Assembly (NCBI RefSeq): GCF_022483985.1
Contig: NZ_JAKVME010000003.1
Coordinates: 9,442-73,441, forward strand
DNA length: 64,000 nucleotides
Source of the DNA: Acetobacter sp.
GTDB taxonomy: Bacteria > Pseudomonadota > Alphaproteobacteria > Acetobacterales > Acetobacteraceae
Direction of reading: 5' to 3'
This document shows positions 51,880 through 64,000 of the stretch, piece after piece. A program made the position numbers and the translations under genes. The notes under the pieces were generated by a model, which had not been told where the DNA came from, ran no database searches, and saw only the letters and a list, made by a program, of their open reading frames with translations. How positions within the stretch are numbered: the stretch's first letter is position 1; every line of letters begins with the position of its first letter.

Positions 51880-52330
51880 CTAGTTCGGATCTTCTTCCTC
51901 ATCGTCCGTGGCCGCTTCACCTGCTCCCGTGTCCGGAACAGGTGGCCTGGGGGGCAAGGGCTGGCTACTCCAGTCATCCGGACAACCGTCCTTGGGACGT
52001 GTGGGCTTTGGCGGTGGAAGAACACGCTCGCGGAAGCGGTCATCCTCGAAATAACGGGCCTTCTTTGCACGGATCGGGTAGAGGCCGGAGACCATGACAA
52101 TCTCGTCCGTGGGCGAAAGCTGCATGATCTCGCCGGCCGTCAACAGCGGGCGCGCCGTTTCCGAGCGCGAAACCATCAGATGGCCCAGCCAGGGCGAAAG
52201 CCGGTGTCCGGCATAGTTCTTCATCGCCTTCATCTCTGTGGCGGTGCCGAGCGCGTCCGAGACACGTTCGCGGTCCGCTCATCGTTGGTGGCGACCCGAC
52301 AGCCCCCCCAGGAGATACGATGCCGGCATG
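51880..52330 (-). pseudogene. traG: type IV coupling protein TraG/VirD4, C-terminal fragment
   Basis: ..ATNDERTA(frameshift)RVSDALGTATEMKAMKNYAGHRLSPWLGHLMVSRSETARPLLTAGEIMQLSPTDEIVMVSGLYPIRAKKARYFED. This is only the last ~130 aa of an ~650-aa protein. Confidence 0.75.
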
Positions 52331-52806: not shown

Positions 52807-53229
52807 ATGATGCCAACGATGACGAGCAAGAATGATGGGGGCAGCATCGCCGTCGATGCTGTTCACAAAGCCGCAGGATCGCGAGACTGGCGGCATAACA
52901 ATCGGACGCGTGCCCTACTGGCAAGCGAACCTAAGCTCAAAACCATTGTTCGTCTGGCAAAGCAGAAGCTGGGAGCGAAGCAGGTCTGGATTTTCGGGAG
53001 CCGGGCCACCGGTACAAATCGCCCTGATAGCGACTGGGATATTTTCCTCGTTCTTCCGAACCGTGCCAGTGACAGTGACCTCAGTCCCAGCAAAACCTGG
53101 GCCGTCGGTCGAGAGGCCGGCCTGATTGCGGATATCGTCGCTGAACGAGACGCCGAGATTCGCTCGACCATCAACGTGCCCAACACATTGTCCTATATTC
53201 TTCACCGTGAGGGTGTGCGCGTTGGCTAA
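52807..53229 (+). CDS. nucleotidyltransferase-domain protein (MNT-type antitoxin candidate)
   Basis: Minimal NTase motif IFGSRATGTNRPDSDWDIFLV (GS-x9-D-x-D). Confidence 0.65.
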   Translation: MMPTMTSKNDGGSIAVDAVHKAAGSRDWRHNNRTRALLASEPKLKTIVRLAKQKLGAKQVWIFGSRATGTNRPDSDWDIFLVLPNRASDSDLSPSKTWAVGREAGLIADIVAERDAEIRSTINVPNTLSYILHREGVRVG

Positions 53230-53686
53230 AACGCCCGATCCCGTTGCAAAGAAGATCGGCTCGCAGATCTGGCTGGCCAATAATTTCCTCAGTGATGCGC
53301 GCCTGCTCCACGCTTCCGGCAGCCGAAATGCGGTCAACCAGCTTTTCTACGCGGTCGAGGCCGCCCTGATTGCCGTCATGACTGCGGAAGGGATCCATAT
53401 CGGACGTCAGCATCAGCACCAGCTCGGCGCCATTCTCGATGACCTGCCTGACGATAACCCGTTGAAACCGGGGTTTCGTGAGGTTGAGGTGCTGACGGCT
53501 TATGCGACCACCTATCGTTATGCGACACCCGGCGGCAATATTCCCCGCGCTCCTGATCCGGATGACGTCGATCGCTGGCAGGAAACGGCTTCACGTCTGG
53601 TCGAAACCATCACACGACATTTCGGGGTGACGGTCACACCAGATGCGTTCAATGCGATAGCAGACGTTACCTCGCCCCCTCGCTAA
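53213..53686 (+). CDS. HEPN-domain protein (toxin candidate of an MNT/HEPN pair)
   Basis: GTG at 53213 (or 53207/53222) overlaps the MNT stop. The helical protein has AVNQLFYAVEAALIAVMTAEGIHIGRQHQHQLG, which is HEPN-like. The R-x4-H motif is not a clean match. Confidence 0.5.
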   Translation: MCALAKTPDPVAKKIGSQIWLANNFLSDARLLHASGSRNAVNQLFYAVEAALIAVMTAEGIHIGRQHQHQLGAILDDLPDDNPLKPGFREVEVLTAYATTYRYATPGGNIPRAPDPDDVDRWQETASRLVETITRHFGVTVTPDAFNAIADVTSPPR

Positions 53687-53852: not shown

Positions 53853-54170
53853 TCACGCGCCAGCCTCCCTGCGGAATCGCCAGACCGGAATGCCCATCTG
53901 CTTGGCCTTGTCGGCCAGATTGTCCTGTATGCCCGATCCCGGAAACACCATGATGCCGACGGGCAGGACTTTCAGCAGGGCGTCGTTGCGCCGGAACGGG
54001 GCGGCCTTGCCATGCCGGTTCCAGTCGGGTTTGAAGGCGATCTGGGCAACCTGCCGATGATCGGCCCAGCGGGAGGCGATGAATTCCGCGCCCTTGGGTG
54101 AACCGCCATGCAACAGCACCATGTCGGGATGCTTCTCGCGCACCTTGTCAAGATGGTTCCAGATCAGAAG
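53853..54170 (-). pseudogene. DUF2493 (SLOG-like) ICE protein, N-terminally truncated
   Basis: ..LDKVREKHPDMVLLHGGSPKGAEFIASRWADHRQVAQIAFKPDWNRHGKAAPFRRNDALLKVLPVGIMVFPGSGIQDNLADKAKQMGIPVW. The upstream part of the ORF is unrelated sequence. Confidence 0.6.
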
Positions 54171-55093: not shown

Positions 55094-55963
55094 TCAAGCA
55101 CATAATTCTACGGGCTCCAAACCAAGAGACTCCGGCATTCTTAGTTTTTTTGATAATATTAAAAGTTCTTTTCCAATACGTTTTTTTTGGACTGAATAAT
55201 TTATATCAAATCCGAACTGCCGTCGTTTTTTATATAAGTTTTGAATTTCAGGCACAAAATCGTAGGTTACAATCCATGGGCACTTAATTCCCATCACGGC
55301 TTCAGAAAGTTTTTGATGGTCTTCAGCATCATAAAAACTTGTATATAAAGACGATCCCTTATTATAATAGGGAGGATCAATACAAAACAAAACTTTTTCG
55401 TCAAAGAGCAATGATTTATTTTTTATGTAAGATGAAGCATCTTCATTTGTAAGGTTTATTCTATCTTTATACTTGAAAACCCTTTCAATTCTTGATATTA
55501 GATCCTCCTTATTAAACCTACAATCAATCTTATAATTACCTTCTTGAGACAGTCCTCCAATAACCCCAGCCCCTTTTATGATACCAGATCTATTCGTTCT
55601 GTTTAAAAAGAATGCAGAAAATCCCAAAGATAAAGGGTCTCTAATATCCTGCTGCAAAAACATTTCTCTTTGTCTATGCCATTCGTGCATGTTGACCGGA
55701 GTATATGTAATCATATCTAAAAAATCTCTATTATGATTTAATACACTAAACCAAAATGCATAAATAGCCGGGTCTATATCGTTAATATGAATATCTGAGA
55801 CCTCTCCTCCATAAAGCAATGTCAAAGCTAACCCAGCCCCTCCTGCAAACGGCTCCACATAATGGCCCCGCTCCAATTTATTTAACTTCAATATGTAGGA
55901 CACCATCTCGGCTAGACAGGTTTTGCCACCGGGATAGCGCAGCGGGGATACAGTTCGTGCCAT
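55094..55963 (-). CDS. Dam-family (D12 class) N6-adenine DNA methyltransferase
   Basis: SPLRYPGGKTCL, YVEPFAGGAGLAL (SAM site) and CIDPPYYN (DPPY catalytic motif). ATG at 55963. Very AT-rich. Confidence 0.85.
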   Translation of the reverse strand: MARTVSPLRYPGGKTCLAEMVSYILKLNKLERGHYVEPFAGGAGLALTLLYGGEVSDIHINDIDPAIYAFWFSVLNHNRDFLDMITYTPVNMHEWHRQREMFLQQDIRDPLSLGFSAFFLNRTNRSGIIKGAGVIGGLSQEGNYKIDCRFNKEDLISRIERVFKYKDRINLTNEDASSYIKNKSLLFDEKVLFCIDPPYYNKGSSLYTSFYDAEDHQKLSEAVMGIKCPWIVTYDFVPEIQNLYKKRRQFGFDINYSVQKKRIGKELLILSKKLRMPESLGLEPVELCA

Positions 55964-56009: not shown

Positions 56010-57500
56010 TCATCCAGATTTTTTCTCTGCACTCTGTTTAATTATATCTTCAATGCACGCATTAACCAATGGTGCTATCGCTTCCATATCATTCGCCAAC
56101 TGGTGTCCATAAAAATTTGCAGAGGTTCCATGGTGTTTCGTCGTATTGCCATGTTCTGAAATTCTTTTAACCGCTTGGTTGAATGCATTATATGTTTCTT
56201 TTTCTTGAAACCCGTAAGCTTTTACCTTTTCCTTACTCCAAAACGATATAAAATCATTATTGGGTCCTTTCCCTGCGAGGGCAGCTAGTGATTCAAGAAA
56301 GGCCCAGCATCCAACTGATAATAAGGGCGTATTGTCATACAGAGACACATTGCAAAGTGAACAATATAGACTTTCTAGTTTTTTACTTTTTATTTTCTTC
56401 AGACCATCAAGTATATTCGAATGATTTTGGATGTATTTCTGCGTACTTGGACGAATCTGTCGCCCAGAGTGATCTCCATTATTTTTAGAATCGACTTCGT
56501 TATCTCGTTCGAAATCTGGATCGGTTTTATCCTTACTTCCCTCCTCAGTTGTTCGATCTGTCTGATTTTCGGTAGGAGAATTACCCGCATCATGAGTTGA
56601 GGCGTTGTCAGATGTCTCTTTAGATATTTTCCTACCGGATGAGTGATCAAGTGCCGCCGATGGTGTTTTCGGTGCCTGGTCTATCAACGGCCATTTCAAA
56701 ATTCTAGGGCTATCAGAAGTTTCTAGGTGAATTAATTTATCAGCATATTTATCAATTTCAGCTTTTTTTGCCCGAGAATTCACAACTCCAGACAAAAGAT
56801 CTTCAATAAATAACTTTGACAAGTCATTAAAAGTTTTCTTATTTCTATCAGTACAAACAATATCATCATCATTAAGAGATAGTCCGAAGCATAATTCTCT
56901 TATTTTTGAATTGCTCAAATATCTTTGTACCGTTGTTAATCTTCCTTTTCTATTTCCGTTTTCTATAATCGACTCTCTCTCAGAATAATCCAAAAATTCT
57001 AAAGCAAATTTATTCTTATCATTTTTCTGTTTGTCTCTAATGAACCTAGATTTTTGATCGGCGTCCCAAGATTTCCGGCCTATGCCACCATTTTGGCCGG
57101 AATGATTTCGTTCTACCCAAATGCTAGCATCATCTACATCAGAAAAAATCACACATCTTACAGAATTTATACCTTCAAACGACTTCTCAAGTCTTTTGAA
57201 TTGGGACTTAAATTTGGTCGGAGCAAGTTCTGGATCTTTGAGAAGTTTCAATGCACATAAGCGCCGATTGCCCTCGACGACTTCATATGCGCCTTGATTG
57301 CCAGCCACAGGTATAACAGCAAACATTTCAATGGGGCTCAAGCCATTGGTTGCTATATCTCGAGCCAATGGATAGACATCTTCTTTATCACAAAGATACT
57401 CTATTGCATCAGATTCTGTTCCTGACGGAGTATGCCTGGGATTTTTTAAATCAAGAAATAGTTTAGAAAGACTAATATTTTTTATATCTCGCTTTACCAC
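56010..57500 (-). CDS. ParB/Srx N-terminal-domain protein with a disordered acidic linker and an unknown C-terminal domain
   Basis: GTG start. LFLDLKNPRH and YEVVEGNRRLCALKLL (GxxRxxA arginine patch). A low-complexity S/T/D/E/N stretch near the middle. The C-terminal ~130 aa are unassigned. The gene lies 46 bp upstream of the Dam gene on the same strand. Confidence 0.7.
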   Translation of the reverse strand: MVKRDIKNISLSKLFLDLKNPRHTPSGTESDAIEYLCDKEDVYPLARDIATNGLSPIEMFAVIPVAGNQGAYEVVEGNRRLCALKLLKDPELAPTKFKSQFKRLEKSFEGINSVRCVIFSDVDDASIWVERNHSGQNGGIGRKSWDADQKSRFIRDKQKNDKNKFALEFLDYSERESIIENGNRKGRLTTVQRYLSNSKIRELCFGLSLNDDDIVCTDRNKKTFNDLSKLFIEDLLSGVVNSRAKKAEIDKYADKLIHLETSDSPRILKWPLIDQAPKTPSAALDHSSGRKISKETSDNASTHDAGNSPTENQTDRTTEEGSKDKTDPDFERDNEVDSKNNGDHSGRQIRPSTQKYIQNHSNILDGLKKIKSKKLESLYCSLCNVSLYDNTPLLSVGCWAFLESLAALAGKGPNNDFISFWSKEKVKAYGFQEKETYNAFNQAVKRISEHGNTTKHHGTSANFYGHQLANDMEAIAPLVNACIEDIIKQSAEKKSG

Positions 57501-57734: not shown

Positions 57735-57818
57735 TTACGTTAGCCGGGTGGAGAGCAGCAGAAATGTTACCTTCATGCGCTTGTCGTCCTTGATCGGGCC
57801 GAGCCTCAGCTTCGTCAG
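57735..57818 (-). pseudogene. DUF2274-like ICE gene stub (start codon lost, truncated)
   Basis: LTKLRLGPIKDDKRMKVTF.. follows trbI as in Tn4371/ICE backbones. The expected overlapping ATG reads CTG, and homology stops after about 20 codons, where the AT-rich cassette begins. Confidence 0.5.
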
Positions 57819-59014
57819 GGCTGGATTTCCTTCGTTCTCCAGGGCTTGAGAACCAGATCGTGGTTCAGAATAAGCGTGAACGGTAGACCCGGCCGGTCGG
57901 TCAGCGTCGGCTGGACGTTAAGGCTGCGATCGATCAGGCGGTTGCCTACCATGGAAAACCCGTTACTAGCCCCACTGCGGATCGCCTGCATCAGGTTGTT
58001 CTCGTTCCACGACGTCCCGGCTTCGGAGCCCACGCTGAGCAGGGTTGTGACCAGCGCCGCCCTGAAAAGCTGTCCCCAATGGTTGTTTACCTCATCGGAC
58101 AGGCCGGACTGACCGATGGCGTCGCCACCGGGCAGCTTTTCCAGCACCAGGCTCTCCCCGTTCAGGTAGATCAACCGGGTCCAGATGATCTGGGTCCGCT
58201 GCTGCCCGAAGGAAACACTGCTGTTATAGGCCCCGAACAGGGTGCTGCCCTGCGGGATCAGCAGGAATCGGCCGGTCGGGCTGTCATAGACGTTCTGGGT
58301 GACATGACCGACAATCTGACCCGGCAGATCGGAGCTGATTTTCGTATTCAGCGCACCAGCGATGACAGTACCCGCCTGCAGAACGTATGGCGAGGTCGGG
58401 AGCATAATCCGGTCGGGACTCACCGTCGCACGGTCTGACTGACCCGCCAGAAAGGCGCGATTGCCAGCCTGCTGGTCGGTTCCTGCCGATGATGCCTGCG
58501 CTCCGGGAGCGGTCGCCATCACCGGCACCGCCTGCGCACTCTGCCCCTCCCGCACCTCGACCTGCGCGAAAAGTCGGCTGGTGCGCGCCGCCTCGATTTC
58601 CTGGTCGCCGCGACGATCCTCCATGCCGGGAACCGGTCCCGCACGTCCCTGCCACTGCGCGTTGACGATCGGCCGGCCCAGATCGCCGGGCAGAGGCTGC
58701 CCCAGCTTCGGGGCATTGGTATAGTCGCGGGGCAAAGCCGACAGCCCGTCGGCCGAGGCACGCGCGTCGGTATCCTGTGCCGCCTGAACCGGTCCTTTTG
58801 GCGTGTTGCCTTGCAGCGCGTAGCCCAACGCGAGACCGATGGCGAGCATTCCGATGGCCCCCAGGGTCCAGATGACGGGGCGCGAAAGCTTTACGACCGG
58901 CGGACGCTGCGCGCGCAGCCGCAGATCGGGTGGCACTGCTGATCCCGGCCCCGCTGCGCTCCCGTTGCCAATAGCGCCTCCGTCCTCACCCGGGCGTTCT
59001 TCCGCGCTGCTCAT
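57815..59014 (-). CDS. trbI: conjugal transfer protein TrbI (VirB10 family)
   Basis: Gly/Pro-rich N-terminus, a single TM (VIWTLGAIGMLAIGLALGYAL) and a conserved C-terminal VirB10 barrel sequence (QAGTVIAGAL..DLPGQIVGHVT..). Confidence 0.85.
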   Translation of the reverse strand: MSSAEERPGEDGGAIGNGSAAGPGSAVPPDLRLRAQRPPVVKLSRPVIWTLGAIGMLAIGLALGYALQGNTPKGPVQAAQDTDARASADGLSALPRDYTNAPKLGQPLPGDLGRPIVNAQWQGRAGPVPGMEDRRGDQEIEAARTSRLFAQVEVREGQSAQAVPVMATAPGAQASSAGTDQQAGNRAFLAGQSDRATVSPDRIMLPTSPYVLQAGTVIAGALNTKISSDLPGQIVGHVTQNVYDSPTGRFLLIPQGSTLFGAYNSSVSFGQQRTQIIWTRLIYLNGESLVLEKLPGGDAIGQSGLSDEVNNHWGQLFRAALVTTLLSVGSEAGTSWNENNLMQAIRSGASNGFSMVGNRLIDRSLNVQPTLTDRPGLPFTLILNHDLVLKPWRTKEIQP

Positions 59015-59265
59015 GACTTTCTGCCATCCGTGCGCACGATACGCACGCGCTGCTCGGAATGTTTGTCACCCAGACGCAATTCAGCGGCGGCAAACAGGCG
59101 GTCGACGATCATCCAGTTCTGCCGCATCCGGTAATTGACCAGTTCCGGGCCGCCATCGGACCCAAGCACGAAAAGCGGCGGCAGTTCCCCCTGTCCGATC
59201 CCGGCCGGAAACGCGATATAGACCTTGTGGCCATCGTCAAACGCCCGGCCAGGCAGCCAGGGCGG
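59011..59265 (-). pseudogene. trbG: TrbG (VirB9 family), C-terminal fragment only
   Basis: ..AFDDGHKVYIAFPAGIGQGELPPLFVLGSDGGPELVNYRMRQNWMIVDRLFAAAELRLGD... It joins directly to the trbD 3' end. Confidence 0.7.
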
Positions 59266-59524
59266 CGTAGCGGAGATGCCGCCGTCCGACCTCGACGAAC
59301 AGCGGATCGCGTTTGGCACCCCAAACCGCGAGGCTATGCCCCACGATCCAGAATACCGCCCCGACCAGCCAGAGCCGCAGACCCAGCGAGATCGCGGCGC
59401 CCAGCGTGCCATTGGCGATGGCCAGCGTACGGGGTGCCCCGCCCAGCAGGATCTGGTCGGTCAGCGAGCGATGCACCGGGACATGAAAGCCCGGCACCGC
59501 GTCATCGTCATATCCAGCGCCCAT
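59237..59524 (-). CDS. trbD: TrbD (VirB3 family), C-terminus altered by the deletion junction
   Basis: MGAGYDDDAVPGFHVPVHRSLTDQILLGGAPR..LWLVGAVFWIVGHSLAVWGAKRDPLFVEVGRRHLRY. The ATGA overlaps the trbC stop. Confidence 0.7.
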   Translation of the reverse strand: MGAGYDDDAVPGFHVPVHRSLTDQILLGGAPRTLAIANGTLGAAISLGLRLWLVGAVFWIVGHSLAVWGAKRDPLFVEVGRRHLRYAALAAWPGV

Positions 59525-59853
59525 CAGATCAGCGCTCCACCGCTGAAGCTGAAGAACGACAGGAAGAACGAGCTGGCCGCAAAAGCGATGGACAGGCCGA
59601 AGACGATCTGGATCAGGCGGCGGAAGCCACCAGAGGTTTCCCCGAACGCCAGCGTCAGGCCGGTCACGGTGATGATGATCACCGACACGATACGCGCTAC
59701 CGGTCCCTGCACGGATTCCAGAATCTGGTTGAGCGGTTCCTCCCACGGCATGTCCGATCCGGACGCCAAGGCCGAGGAGCACCATGCGATGGACAGCAGC
59801 ACGGCGGAAAAGACAGGCGCGTGCCGACGCACGCGAAACAGCGTGATGTTCAT
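59524..59853 (-). CDS. trbC: TrbC (VirB2 pilin family)
   Basis: MNITLFRVRRHAPVFSAVLLSIAWCSSALA signal, MPWEEPL and two TM helices. The ATGA overlaps the trbB stop. Confidence 0.75.
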   Translation of the reverse strand: MNITLFRVRRHAPVFSAVLLSIAWCSSALASGSDMPWEEPLNQILESVQGPVARIVSVIIITVTGLTLAFGETSGGFRRLIQIVFGLSIAFAASSFFLSFFSFSGGALI

Positions 59854-60808
59854 TGGAAATCTCCATCGGTATCGATTGAATGAATGCGATAGGCGCCTGT
59901 GGCGGGGTCGATCCCGTCCACGGTGGCGAGTTCGGACAACCGGCGCTGTGTGCCTCGCCCCGACAGGACAGCGATCACGTCGATCGTCTCGGCGATCAGC
60001 ACGCGGGGCACGGTGACGACGATTTCCTGGATCAACTGCTCCATGCGATGCAACGCGCCGATGGCGGTGCCGGCGTGGAGCGTACCGATGCCGCCAGGAT
60101 GGCCCGTGCCCCACGCCTTGAGCAGGTCGAGCGCCTCGGGACCGCGCACCTCGCCGATCGGGATACGGTCGGGCCGCAGGCGCAGGGCTGAACGGACCAG
60201 TTCGGACAGGGTGACGATGCCATCACGGGTGCGCAGGGACACGAGGTTGGGTGCCGCGCATTGCAGTTCGCGCGTGTCCTCGATCAGCACGACCCGGTCG
60301 TCGGTTTTCGCGACCTCGGCCAGCAGGGCATTGACCAGCGTGGTCTTGCCGGTCGAGGTTCCGCCCGCGACCAGGATGTTCTTCCGGTCTGCTACAGCGC
60401 GACAAAGGTATGCTGCCTGCCCCGCTGTCATGATCCCGGCAGCGACATAATCGTCGAGGGTAAACACGGCGACGGCGGGTTTGCGGATGGCGAAGCTCGG
60501 GGCCGTCACCACGGGCGGGAGCAATCCCTCGAACCGTTCGCCGGTCGGCAATTCGGCCGAGACACGCGGGGCACCGTCATGCACCTCCGCCCCAACATGA
60601 TGCGCTCAGCGTCGGCGAGTGTGATGACGTCGCCCGTGTCGGACAGGCCCTCCGACAGACGGTCGATCCACAGCCGCCCGTCCGGGTTAAGCATCACCTC
60701 GACCACGGAAGGATCGGCAAGGTGCCCTGCGATCGCCGGCCCCATCGCTGTGCGCAGCATGGAAATGCCACGTGCCTGACTTTCCGAATTATGGTGCGAA
60801 ACCGCCAT
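59850..60808 (-). pseudogene. trbB: TrbB (VirB11 ATPase), broken by a small deletion/frameshift near 60590-60600
   Basis: The N-terminal part (MLRTAMGPAIAGHLADPSVVEVMLNPDGRLWIDRL..ADAERI) is in one frame. The rest ([27 protein letters not shown]..) is in another. Confidence 0.8.
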
Positions 60809-61255: not shown

Positions 61256-61803
61256 GATCGGGCCTCCGGTTGGGTTCGGCGGCTGTCGGTCACGACAGCG
61301 GGCCATGGCGAACCGTGGCGGAAGATCGGCAAGATAGAGAGTGCCGGAATCAAGGCGGTATGGTTTCGGCACCCCAATGGATCTTACTTATGAAGAATGG
61401 CAGCAATGGCGAGGAACGGAATGTCTGCTTTGTGTAGGGAAATTGGTAAAACCGGACATGCACACAGACGACCGACGCGAAGGATTCCATCCCATTCTGG
61501 TCGTTCAAATAACCCGTGAGACTTTCTGAAGCCAACATTTTCTCATCAATCAGCCAAGCGTCAGCTAATTGATTCGGTTTACGTGTTCGGACCCCACCTG
61601 GTCCGCCGATTACCGTGCAAACTGGCCACCTGTCCATTCTCTATCAAAGAGAAAGCGCCTTAAGGGGCGGTTGCTCTGCGGGCAGGGATTCTCTTACATC
61701 CTACCAACCAGCATAGCCCGTCGCCACAACCGCCGCTCACATGTCATCGCGTGAATGGCGGCGCATTCACCCCCGTTCCATTCTGCACCTCCCCGCATGA
61801 GTG

Positions 61804-61830
61804 GCATAGAAGCCGGAAAGGCTTCTATGC
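61804..61830. other. perfect 11-bp-stem hairpin / palindrome
   Basis: gcatagaagcc ggaaa ggcttctatgc, about 90 bp upstream of the XRE gene. No T-run follows on either strand. Confidence 0.6.
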
Positions 61831-61918
61831 AGCTCGCTTTCCAGCTAGACGCCCGAGGTGCTCAATGTTACCGTTTTTATATAACCTTTGAGTAAATCTT
61901 CGATCTGCGAGGCTAGAC

Positions 61919-62146
61919 GTGACCATAACGCCAGAGCAGTGCCGAATGGCGCGAGCTGGACTGCATATGAGTCAGGCCGATTTGGCCCGACGCGCTGATG
62001 TCGCACCCGCGACCATCGCAGAATTCGAGAAGGGAAGAAGAACACCTTATGACCGCACGGTTCGCGACATCCAACGCGTTCTCGAAGAGGCAGGGGCAAC
62101 TTTTGTAGATGGTGGCGTGACGCTCACAGCGGAGCAAGGAAAATGA
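61919..62146 (+). CDS. XRE-family HTH transcriptional regulator
   Basis: GTG start. ITPEQCRMARAGLHMSQADLARRADVAPATIAEFEKGRRTP (Cro/C1-type HTH). The stop overlaps the next start (ATGA). Confidence 0.8.
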   Translation: MTITPEQCRMARAGLHMSQADLARRADVAPATIAEFEKGRRTPYDRTVRDIQRVLEEAGATFVDGGVTLTAEQGK

Positions 62147-63303
62147 CGAACAACCCAATCCAGAAGCCTGCCGATGTCCCGCTTGAAGATACGACTAAAG
62201 TCAGCGTCGATTGGCTGAAACTCGACCACGAGAACCCTCGTCTTGTGGGTATAAGCGCTCGCACGACAGATGAAAGCATTGTGGCGCAGCTTTACCGGGG
62301 CGAAGAATTGGGCGAGTTGCTCCAGTCTATTTCGGCGAACGGCTATCTGGACATCGAGCCTCTGATCGTCTGGTTGGACCCCGCCGACCAGAAATTCACA
62401 GTTCTTGAAGGCAACCGCAGGCTTGCAGCTATTCGTCTGTTTCGCGAGCCTGCGTTTGTTGATGCCATTGCCAAAAATGAACGCATTAAGATCGGCGTCC
62501 CTGTAATCAACAACGCGGTTGAGGCATCGCTTGCCGAGGTATCTGTCTATCGCGTCCCTGACCGGGACGCGGCTCGCTCATTCATCGGCTTCAAACACAT
62601 CAACGGCGCGGCGAAGTGGGAATCTTACGCCAAGGCAAAATTTGCAGCGGGGTGGTACAATTCCGGGAATGTGTCGCTGGAGGAAATTTCTGAGAAGATC
62701 GGTGACCGGCATGACACGATCAAGCGAATGGTTGCCGCGATTTACGTTCTGGATCAGGCCGAGCGTCAGGGCGTCTTTTCGCTAACAGATCGTAAGATCA
62801 CCAAGTTCAATTTCTCGCATCTGTATACGGCCCTCTCCCGCTCAACATACATGAGCTATTTGGGGCTTGAGACCGCCTGGTCTCGGTATGACCCGCAGCC
62901 TGATCCGGTGCCGGCTGATAAGCTGGACCGCCTGCGGGAAGTGCTGGTCTGGATTTATGGTTCTAAGGATGATGATAAGGAACCAGTTGTCCAGTCGCAA
63001 AACCCCGACATCAAGAACCTTGGCGAAACGCTCGCAAGCGCCGAAGGACTCCATATCCTGCGCGCAGGCGGCACACTGGCAGAAGCGCACGCAAGCACCA
63101 AGCCAGCCGATGAAACCCTTTCGGCGTCGCTGATTCGTGCCCGCAGCGTCTTACGGGAGGCGGCGAACAGCCTTCGAGGCTATGACGGACGCGATCAGTC
63201 CCTTCTGAACATTGCGGAAGACGTGTCTGAGACTGCGCAAACCATTTATGATCGAATGAGGAAGAAATTCCGCGATGCCATGGGGGACGGCCGTGGCAGT
63301 TGA
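62143..63303 (+). CDS. ParB/Srx N-terminal-domain protein (paralog type of 56010..57500)
   Basis: VDWLKLDHENPRL and FTVLEGNRRLAAIRLF (GxxRxxA). A shared downstream block: GFKHINGAAKWESYAKAKF here, versus ERNHSGQNGGIGRKSWDADQKSRF in the other copy. I see no ParB HTH or dimerisation region. Confidence 0.7.
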   Translation: MTNNPIQKPADVPLEDTTKVSVDWLKLDHENPRLVGISARTTDESIVAQLYRGEELGELLQSISANGYLDIEPLIVWLDPADQKFTVLEGNRRLAAIRLFREPAFVDAIAKNERIKIGVPVINNAVEASLAEVSVYRVPDRDAARSFIGFKHINGAAKWESYAKAKFAAGWYNSGNVSLEEISEKIGDRHDTIKRMVAAIYVLDQAERQGVFSLTDRKITKFNFSHLYTALSRSTYMSYLGLETAWSRYDPQPDPVPADKLDRLREVLVWIYGSKDDDKEPVVQSQNPDIKNLGETLASAEGLHILRAGGTLAEAHASTKPADETLSASLIRARSVLREAANSLRGYDGRDQSLLNIAEDVSETAQTIYDRMRKKFRDAMGDGRGS

Positions 63304-64000
63304 ACTTTATTTTCCACATGATGAAGTGGACACCAAAAAGCCGAACTTCGATCTTGCCGCTGACTATCTTGAACTGACGGCTTTCTTTTCAGAAGAAGCT
63401 AGGTCATTTACGAAAGACCTAATTAACGCGACAGAGATTGGCGCAGAAGACGACTACGAGACTGCCGATGAAGAGATGACCGACCGGGAAGAAATCGTTT
63501 CCGGGGCGGTCAGACGAATTGACGGCAGACGTGACGCGCTTGGCGAATCTTACCCATTCACTCTGGATGAGAATGGCGATGTCCTGACATATGGCGGGAA
63601 TGATCCTTCCTACGGGCAAGCCGCCTATATCCTCTCGCTCATTCTTTCGCATCTGAAGGCATTATCGCCAATTCTCGATGGATCGGCTGTTTATCCGACA
63701 GACGCGGAAATTATAGAGCTTAGGAAATATTTCCAGTATTTTGCGACGGCAGCGTTGGCGGCAGAAGTAAATGGTCGGGCTTGGTCTTTCGGTCATCCCC
63801 GACCGGACAAGACCAATTTTCACACGAAGCTCGCCGAAATATGGGGGGTATTTCGAGATGGCGTTCTACAGGCAGCCGTGGGCGTGCCTGACAGGCCGCA
63901 AGATGACCAGATAGACGTTTTCGCAGCTCGTCTCCAACCGGATGGTCTCCCCGGCTTTCTACTTGCCGCAGGACAAGTCGCGACTGGCAATAACTGGCGT
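63275..64000 (+). CDS. unknown protein, 3' end beyond the window (third gene of the XRE/ParB-like operon)
   Basis: The frame is open with no stop from 63275 (ATG) or 63293 (GTG) to 64000, as checked by reading the codons. It overlaps the upstream stop. The visible end carries DDQIDVFAA..x20..GQVATGNNW. It is absent from the supplied ORF track because no stop codon is reached. Confidence 0.6.
   Translation, partial: MPWGTAVAVELYFPHDEVDTKKPNFDLAADYLELTAFFSEEARSFTKDLINATEIGAEDDYETADEEMTDREEIVSGAVRRIDGRRDALGESYPFTLDENGDVLTYGGNDPSYGQAAYILSLILSHLKALSPILDGSAVYPTDAEIIELRKYFQYFATAALAAEVNGRAWSFGHPRPDKTNFHTKLAEIWGVFRDGVLQAAVGVPDRPQDDQIDVFAARLQPDGLPGFLLAAGQVATGNNWR

Follow-up and report, generated by a model that had tools for sequence, protein, structure and literature searches.

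The 3' end of a 64,000-nucleotide stretch of Acetobacter sp. DNA (assembly GCF_022483985.1, contig NZ_JAKVME010000003.1; the whole stretch is called the window here) carries a compact operon on the + strand, whose genes run into one another through overlapping reading frames. ORF1 (61919-62146, +) encodes a 75-aa XRE-family helix-turn-helix (HTH) protein and begins with GTG, with a GAGG 7 nt 5' of the start. ORF2 (62143-63303, +) encodes a 386-aa ParB-fold protein, and the ATGA at 62143-62146 is common to its start and the end of ORF1. ORF3 (63293-64000, +) encodes a restriction-endonuclease-like protein, of which the window contains the first 236 of 333 codons. Its two start candidates, ATG at 63275 and GTG at 63293, both overlap the ORF2 stop codon at 63301-63303, and the GTG is favoured by alignment with 55 homologues, giving a protein of 333 aa. 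A first-pass annotation, made from the sequence alone, had described three same-strand genes coupled by overlaps, and its coordinates and overlaps were all found again. Beyond position 64000, where that annotation had suggested looking, the locus can be followed on a 518-kb JGI metagenome contig (locus L001), which contains the exact sequence of ORF2 and is 100% identical to the final 11,858 bases of the window. There, ORF3 is completed to 333 aa with its stop at window-equivalent position 64294, and a methyltransferase gene (window-equivalent 64291-65382, read on L001 and lying beyond the window) starts 4 nt before that stop. It is followed by a LysR gene on the opposite strand. The operon consists of four genes (XRE, ParB-like, ORF3 and methyltransferase), all junctions overlapping, and is cut by the window. 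The coupled XRE, ParB-like and third gene of the first-pass annotation stand, but the fourth gene had been missed, and with the methyltransferase found, an "unknown defence" locus becomes a restriction-modification (R-M)-type system.

The reading frames are real genes and not chance openings, since ORF2 has 3602 and ORF3 737 database homologues and the two genes overlap each other in 73 of 81 related loci, 48 of them by 4 nt. A scan of the operon for promoters and terminators gave matches no more frequent than chance. Related loci were collected by scanning one genome per species, which returned 80 of the 105 loci confirmed. Their sources are Alpha-, Beta- and Gammaproteobacteria, Binatia, Acidobacteriota, Dehalococcoidia, Nitrospirales, Cyanobacteria, Latescibacterota, Caldilineaceae and others, and several are sponge-associated metagenome-assembled genomes. 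In all of them (80/80), an ORF2 homologue lies directly 5' of ORF3, so that the pair, which had been proposed as something to look for in other genomes, is conserved as immediate neighbours. Because the module occurs in distant phyla at 52-91% identity, horizontal transfer is indicated. Aquamicrobium terrae DSM 27865 (locus L003, NZ_JBEPML010000001.1), for instance, has an ORF3 that is ~91% identical. The same SPPY-type methyltransferase is found directly downstream in 56 loci, with a 4-nt overlap with the ORF3 stop in 52 of 57. A D12 (Dam-like) methyltransferase is adjacent instead in nine loci, in at least three of which it belongs to a complete PD-lambda-5 A+B pair. An adjacent methyltransferase of either class is present in 65 of the 80 loci. 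Three further loci have methyltransferase fragments only, and 12 others have none within 7 kb, one of them being interrupted by the end of its contig. L013, L022, L027 and L028 are examples of loci in complete genomes that have no linked methyltransferase.

ORF2 is poorly recognized by sequence libraries. Weak matches were obtained with ParB_N (E 0.007) and TIGR00180 (E 8.6e-7), the Pfam ParB_N score being 16.8 bits, under the threshold of 26.3, and comparison of the family profile with PDB sequences returned nothing meaningful. The motifs LKLDHENPR (residues 25-33) and VLEGNRRLAAIRL (residues 87-99), to which the first-pass annotation had drawn attention, are present, with the NPR motif at 62233-62241 and GNRR at 62410-62421. 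Residues D28, N31, P32, R33 and E89-G-N-R-R93 are invariant in the homologue alignments. An AlphaFold2 model was built from 68 sequences (pLDDT 86.5, pTM 0.64), and Foldseek returned 22 PDB matches at E<1e-3, all of them ParB-family proteins (ParB, Spo0J, KorB, Noc), several solved with CTPgammaS or CDP bound. The top match is Myxococcus xanthus ParB with CTPgammaS (7bnr, 1.3e-5). The fold alignments cover about 260 columns and span both the nucleotide-binding domain and the HTH, and in the model residues ~161-208 (VSLEEISEKIGDRHDTIKRMVAAIYVL; HTH region ~62623-62766) form HTH-like helices. Distant relatives of ORF2 also give weak HTH matches over this region. An earlier statement that ORF2 is without a ParB HTH is overturned by these alignments to ParB, KorB and Noc. 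The C-terminal part (residues 225-386) is helical in the model and ends in a long helical hairpin. In ParB, the third motif carries residues needed for cytidine triphosphate (CTP) hydrolysis; in ORF2 it is replaced by F-K-H-x-N-G, which falls in a loop modelled at low confidence (residues 150-157). Nucleotide binding by ORF2 is likely.

The closest named relatives of ORF2 are defence proteins. In PADLOC, ORF2 residues 15-213 match PD-Lambda-5_A (E 1.4e-21) over the first ~200 profile positions only, and hhalign against four PD-Lambda-5_A proteins extends the match to ORF2 residues 15-324 and PD-Lambda-5_A residues 4-311, with 97.4% probability. By profile comparison, the homology of ORF2 covers the first ~300 residues of PD-Lambda-5_A. 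The ORF2-type protein forms 197 clusters (50% identity) at E<1e-30. The fold of ORF2, matching ParB, KorB and Noc over the nucleotide-binding and HTH domains, together with conjugation genes adjoining the locus, could also suggest a partition or silencing protein of an integrative element, with ORF3 as a backbone gene and the methyltransferase as an incidental neighbour. This is highly improbable. As the first-pass annotation had noted, neither a parA partner nor parS-like repeats are seen nearby: there is no parA among the called genes within 10 kb of the operon, no parS-like repeat or repeated palindrome family was found, and no ParA-like gene is among the listed recurrent neighbour clusters of the 80 loci. 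In these 80 other loci, the pair stands without conjugation genes, beside ORFs resembling R-M, toxin-antitoxin and insertion sequence (IS) genes. The nuclease fold of ORF3 and the kinship of ORF2 with PD-Lambda-5_A also speak against it. A partition ParB was rejected as an identity for ORF2, in agreement with the first-pass annotation, given that parA and parS are missing and the pair recurs in defence contexts.

ORF3 had been described as matching no nameable family, and this was borne out. Every homologue with a source name is called "hypothetical protein", and 0 of the 737 carry a precomputed Pfam domain. ORF3 and all 55 family members gave no curated family in Pfam, ORF3 had no match in NCBIfam or PADLOC, and the family profile gave nothing meaningful against PDB sequences. 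The fold was read from an AlphaFold2 model of an 89%-identical homologue (pLDDT 88, pTM 0.90). Its top PDB folds are MspJI (E 2.7e-3, probability 0.97), VC1899, Can2, AspBHI, Ecl18kI, BsmI and Card1; no PDB match falls at E<1e-3, and the top of the list consists consistently of PD-(D/E)xK nucleases. In a viral fold library, only weak Mrr-like and restriction-endonuclease-like matches were found. The Foldseek comparison of models that had been suggested at first pass places ORF2 in the ParB family and the ORF3 homologue among PD-(D/E)xK nucleases, the latter with marginal scores. On the modelled structure, ORF3 is assigned a restriction-endonuclease-like fold, in a family outside the curated libraries. 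In the model, the first ~190 residues make up a largely helical domain, with no recognized relative and no SRA-like modified-base reader domain. The possibility that ORF3 is a detached PD-Lambda-5_A C-terminal domain was also considered and rejected (hhalign probability 0.07%). Phage genomes yielded no homologue of ORF3, and plasmids gave only three weak matches, all unannotated.

The putative active site of ORF3 departs from the canonical one. The DDQIDV and GQVATGNNW stretches picked out at first pass are both present, D204-D208 lying at 63902-63916 and Q228-V-A230 at 63974-63982, and the Mrr-like PD-(D/E)xK layout with Ala in place of Lys that had been read from them is reproduced by the D...D...Q core, A230 and the nuclease-like fold. 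D204, D208, D217, Q228, R289 and R291 are invariant down to relatives of 20-27% identity. With A230 at the canonical Lys position, ORF3 might be a catalytically dead DNA-binding adaptor, in which case any cleavage or toxicity would be due to ORF2 or to a factor encoded elsewhere. Nuclease activity has been reported for some proteins of the ParB/Srx fold, Osa among them. In the Menshen paper, Osa is placed only among ParB-domain NTPases (PMC12065111). A dead ORF3 is distinctly unlikely, since D204, D208, D217 and Q228 are invariant in relatives down to 20% identity, and K238 is kept wherever position 230 is not Lys, whereas the single Q-C-K branch (L084) is without K238. Such covariation of positions 230 and 238 would be expected if the catalytic lysine had moved, and on that ground the ORF3 family is argued to be catalytically active.

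The fourth gene encodes a protein of 350-376 aa with matches to Pfam N6_N4_Mtase (E 2.6e-13) and PADLOC MTase_II (E 1.8e-25), an FxGxG motif close to its N-terminus and SPPY some 200 residues further along. On these motifs and profiles, it is an N6/N4-class DNA methyltransferase. It gave no match to the PADLOC PD-Lambda-5_B models.

Altogether, the locus is read, with moderate confidence, as a methylation-linked, nuclease-based R-M-type defence (or exclusion) module with a three-protein core and an optional regulator, which may act against phages or plasmids. The methyltransferase would mark host DNA. ORF2, with its nucleotide-binding GNRR pocket and ParB-type HTH, would bind DNA as a sensor or specificity subunit, and ORF3, as an Mrr/MspJI-like PD-(D/E)xK nuclease, would act as the effector, cutting DNA once ORF2 licenses it. 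A more specific version of this mechanism can be put forward only tentatively, in which ORF2 is a nucleotide-switched ParB clamp that loads through its HTH at unmethylated sites, closes on CTP or another nucleoside triphosphate, slides, and delivers or activates ORF3 at a distance. Should ORF2 employ a CTP switch, ParB clamping, known from chromosome segregation and gene silencing, would have a role in immunity as well. If the clamp version is true, a restriction enzyme would communicate along DNA by a ParB-type sliding clamp and not by an ATP-driven motor, and effectors would be interchangeable, with HEPN fused in PD-lambda-5 and a PD-(D/E)xK nuclease acting in trans here.

Several observations weigh against an R-M-type system. 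An intact ORF2-ORF3 pair is retained in 12-15 loci without an intact linked methyltransferase, and a classical restriction enzyme would not be expected to persist once its methylase is gone. In these loci, deviations at family-conserved positions have medians of 0.5/83 for ORF2 and 2/113 for ORF3, vs 0 and 1 in methyltransferase-linked loci, and all candidate catalytic residues are retained. It is for this reason that the classical R-M mechanism is held at no more than moderate confidence. ORF3 resembles nucleases in structure only at marginal scores (best E 2.7e-3, TM-score ~0.2), the Lys of the canonical Q-x-K is Ala, and its best folds, MspJI and AspBHI, are those of modification-dependent enzymes. 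The methyltransferase is the final gene of the operon, which is unusual for systems under a controller (C) protein. Finally, the third motif of ORF2, compared with the canonical one, is unlike that of CTP-hydrolysing ParBs, in a stretch modelled at low confidence. The methyltransferase-less loci may be served by a methyltransferase in trans, by a gating of the nuclease other than methylation, or by a type IV-like or infection-triggered action of the pair.

The last of these leads to a different reading of the whole module, in which ORF2 and ORF3 form a modification-dependent (type IV-like) or infection-triggered nuclease, as GmrS and GmrD do, with ORF2 sensing modified or foreign DNA. The neighbouring methyltransferase would then not be a self-protection partner and could have a separate or counter-defence function. 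The modification-dependent enzymes among the best ORF3 folds and the intact pairs without methyltransferase (12-15 of 80 loci) are consistent with this, as are the combination of a ParB-superfamily NTPase with a nuclease, which is the GmrSD/SspE/BrxU design (PMC12065111), and the weak GmrSD_N matches of ORF2 relatives (E 8e-4 to 0.017), ORF2 itself giving none. It is nonetheless judged rather unlikely, because a methyltransferase is adjacent in 65 of 80 loci and usually coupled to ORF3 by the 4-nt overlap. Moreover, the class of the methyltransferase changes while the linkage is kept, which argues for a functional need for methylation, and ORF3 is without an SRA-like reader domain, its N-terminal half being mostly helical.

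The R-M-type reading extends to the regulator. ORF1 matches Pfam HTH_3 (E 2.8e-8), its best PADLOC model is "Control_protein" (E 3.8e-12) and, among solved structures, PDB 4yba ("Regulatory protein C", E 1.9e-10) matches best; by these matches, it is a homologue of R-M C proteins. The XRE gene is optional, being found 5' of the ParB-like gene in ~22 of 82 loci. About 50 bp upstream of the ORF1 start lies an inverted repeat, AATGTTA-N11-TAACCTT (61864-61888), as a candidate operator. It has a single match in the window and matched in 0 of 100 shuffles. The same repeat occurs at the same distance 5' of the XRE gene in related loci of different phyla, and the copies in L045 and L053 are perfect palindromes. 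A degenerate form has 24 matches in 1.1 Mb, 10 of which fall inside the 270-bp zone upstream of XRE genes. ORF1 probably autoregulates the operon from this repeat, and such autoregulation would delay expression of the nuclease after the module enters a new cell. Two other features were seen in this upstream region. A hairpin with 16-nt arms, GAGTGGCATAGAAGCC ggaaa GGCTTCTATGCAGCTC (88% complementary), is located at 61799-61835, ~30 bp upstream of the candidate operator, and a TAGAC/TGGACA motif, -35-like in look, immediately precedes the operator in many of the related loci.

The first-pass annotation had placed the operon at the edge of a dead integrative and conjugative element (ICE), and the surrounding genes confirm the decay. 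A gutted conjugative transfer cluster lies on the - strand at 57815-60584 and ~51880-52233. TrbB is truncated (244 aa, covering profile positions 100-272 of 370), TrbC and TrbI are present, TrbG/CagX is reduced to a 102-aa fragment and TraG/VirD4 to a 117-aa fragment. In the usual Trb gene order, trbD/E/J/L/F sit between TrbC and TrbG; here they are missing, with nothing, and no room, between the two. An MNT/HEPN pair (52807-53686, +), with an NTP_transf_2/Polbeta gene followed by HEPN (E 7.7e-5), adjoins a small gene with a YAcAr domain (53853-54143, -). The defence-island context described earlier holds for the MNT/HEPN pair, but the "orphan methylase" reported with it is not an orphan: it is PD-Lambda-5_B, a D12 methyltransferase (55094-55906, -; PADLOC E 4.4e-110), beside a full-length PD-Lambda-5_A of 496 aa (56010-57500, -; PADLOC E 2.5e-148, end-to-end match). 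Since the PD-lambda-5 genes have 34-37% G+C vs 54% for the window, the pair has the look of foreign DNA recently inserted among the Trb genes. The island holds two related ParB-like, methylation-linked systems ~4.4 kb apart.

Beyond the window, on L001 (15407-19005, window-equivalent 67549-71147), tRNA-Met, tRNA-Ala and tRNA-Ile genes lie on the - strand after the LysR gene, the tRNA-Met ~2 kb and the tRNA-Ala/tRNA-Ile pair ~5.5 kb further on. The tRNA-Ile/tRNA-Ala pair suggests a ribosomal RNA operon spacer, the search having covered tRNA genes. The 3' end of the tRNA-Met faces the island and may be the integration site of the decayed element.

A location of this kind could suit a selfish addiction cassette, in which post-segregational killing by the R-M genes stabilizes a genomic island and defence is at most a side effect. 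The module is carried by a decayed conjugative element together with other mobile-element cargo, its C-protein-type regulator is typical of mobile R-M units, and its spread through distant phyla at 52-91% identity implies horizontal transfer. Addiction is compatible with defence and does not exclude it, but methyltransferase-less loci with an intact pair are hard to square with strong addiction, and ORF3 homologues are absent from the phage genomes searched and come to three weak matches in plasmids. As the principal function, it seems quite unlikely.

The wider set of relatives fits a defence setting. Recurrent neighbours resemble type I and type III R-M genes, IS transposases and a PIN/VapC toxin (N-terminal sequences read by eye), one SoFic-like neighbour was matched by PADLOC, and the variant of Vibrio campbellii LJC015 (NZ_CP050465.1, ~1105.8-1109.0 kb) adjoins an integrase-like ORF (read by eye). 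In ORF2 relatives at 29-36% identity, the triad persists; its methyltransferase may be of either class and lie upstream, downstream or in convergent orientation, and the ORF3-like gene is recognizable (hhalign 96%; hmmsearch E 1e-13 to 1e-37). In L083 (3797-4660), a distant variant of the form XRE / ParB-like / ORF3-like / D12 methyltransferase is followed directly by a canonical Mrr type IV restriction gene and a DUF3800 gene, which is further defence-island context. Other variants were seen in individual loci. A PD-lambda-5 A+B pair directly adjoins the ParB-like/ORF3 pair and replaces the SPPY methyltransferase in L018 (8068-10409), L019 (4298-6642) and L045 (8037-10369), with all of these genes on the same strand in L018 and L019; the two ParB-like systems may share a methyltransferase or cooperate. 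In L020 (9541-10566), a D12 methyltransferase alone was detected beside the pair. The ParB-like gene is split by an insertion in L012 (2585-6984, ~3.2 kb) and L040 (3570-7004, ~1.9 kb), where ORF3 and the methyltransferase are intact, and ParB-like genes are truncated at the N-terminus in L064 and L076. From these four loci it follows that the ParB-like gene can be lost while the other two genes are retained.

Among known systems, several share part of this design. The ParB/KorB/Noc CTP-dependent clamps provide the best structural matches to ORF2, which keeps their NPR and GxRR pocket motifs, with a GxRR-bearing nucleotide-binding domain and an HTH as in ParABS. In contrast to them, ORF2 has no ParA and no parS at hand, carries FKHxNG as its third motif, has a different C-terminal part and always has a nuclease-like partner. 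ParB-superfamily domains are DNA sensors coupled to nucleases in GmrSD, SspE, DndB and Menshen (PMC12065111). With GmrS/GmrD, GmrSD, BrxU and SspE, the module would share the principle of combining a ParB/Srx-fold nucleotide-binding DNA sensor with a DNA nuclease, in one protein or two (PMC12065111). GmrSD-type systems pair a DUF262 domain bearing DGQQR with a His-Me nuclease of DUF1524; their target is modified DNA, and they include no methyltransferase. The module has EGNRR in a true ParB/KorB/Noc-like fold with HTH, a PD-(D/E)xK-like nuclease and, usually, a linked methyltransferase, and it does not belong to the GmrSD type. With Mrr and MspJI, ORF3 shares the fold family of its C-terminal half and the D...D...Q-x-(K) core layout, but it has no sequence-level family match, its presumed catalytic Lys is at position 238 in most members and its N-terminal ~190 residues are helical. 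MADS was rejected as an assignment, weak generic matches to mad1 and mad2 being all that was found. In the literature on ParB-like proteins in restriction or defence, no description of the ORF2/ORF3/methyltransferase triad was found.

Like C-controlled type II R-M systems (Esp1396I, the system of PDB 4yba), the module has a small XRE controller and a palindromic operator-like site upstream, together with a stand-alone methyltransferase and a putative PD-(D/E)xK-type nuclease, and it is mobile with a patchy distribution. Both a linked methyltransferase and a controller with a candidate palindromic operator are present. It differs in that a third, always-present ParB-fold protein is encoded after the controller and before the nuclease, the methyltransferase runs in the same direction and is coupled at the end of the operon instead of being separately transcribed, the controller is found in only about a quarter of loci and some loci have no methyltransferase. 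The obligatory ParB-like linkage (80/80) suggests that the ORF3 nuclease does not work alone, as a type II homodimer needing only Mg2+ would, and strict dependence on methylation is put in question by the loci that have no methyltransferase. Because of the obligatory third protein, the label of type II R-M with a C protein fits loosely.

The closest known system is PD-lambda-5, a validated two-gene anti-phage system of broad activity that includes a methyltransferase (Vassallo et al. 2022, PMC9519451). Its cloning needed an mrr-deleted host, and it was described as a compacted RM+Abi (abortive infection) system (PMC9519451). A preprint lists it among HEPN-containing systems (10.1101/2024.10.26.620412); a HEPN domain in PD-Lambda-5_A received no confirmation from Pfam. 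The likeness to ORF2 takes in ~300 residues, from the ParB N-domain through the HTH to the middle region, and the NPR and EGNRR motifs are shared; both systems are methyltransferase-linked, some relatives of this module using the D12 class too. Unlike PD-Lambda-5_A, ORF2 is without the C-terminal ~130-aa domain ("HEPN" in the preprint), and ORF3 is a separate, always-present gene with no similarity to either PD-lambda-5 protein. The operon methyltransferase is of the N6_N4/SPPY class and not PD-Lambda-5_B, and a C-protein gene is often present. With no full-length PD-Lambda-5_A (~430-500 aa), no PD-Lambda-5_B and an architecture other than two genes, the module does not belong to PD-lambda-5 itself. 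From the shared homology, it is considered an evolutionary relative, in which the same ParB-like sensor core would be kept, the C-terminal domain replaced by a separate nuclease gene and the methyltransferase drawn from another class. The earlier proposal of a candidate new defence module is supported by the conserved pairing, the defence-island neighbours and the PD-Lambda-5_A homology, but newness has to be qualified, the module being a relative of a validated system. What is new is an ORF2-ORF3 module outside the Pfam, NCBIfam and PADLOC libraries, of a known kind that is R-M-like and PD-lambda-5-related. ORF3 is absent from Pfam, NCBIfam and PADLOC (v2, 2023), so that annotation based on these libraries would show no more than a hypothetical protein or a stray "ParB". 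If the R-M-type reading is true, they represent a widespread family of methylation-linked defence systems in many phyla. That the same ParB-like core is found here with an effector other than that of PD-lambda-5 suggests that sensing lies in the ParB-like part and that the variable part acts as effector.

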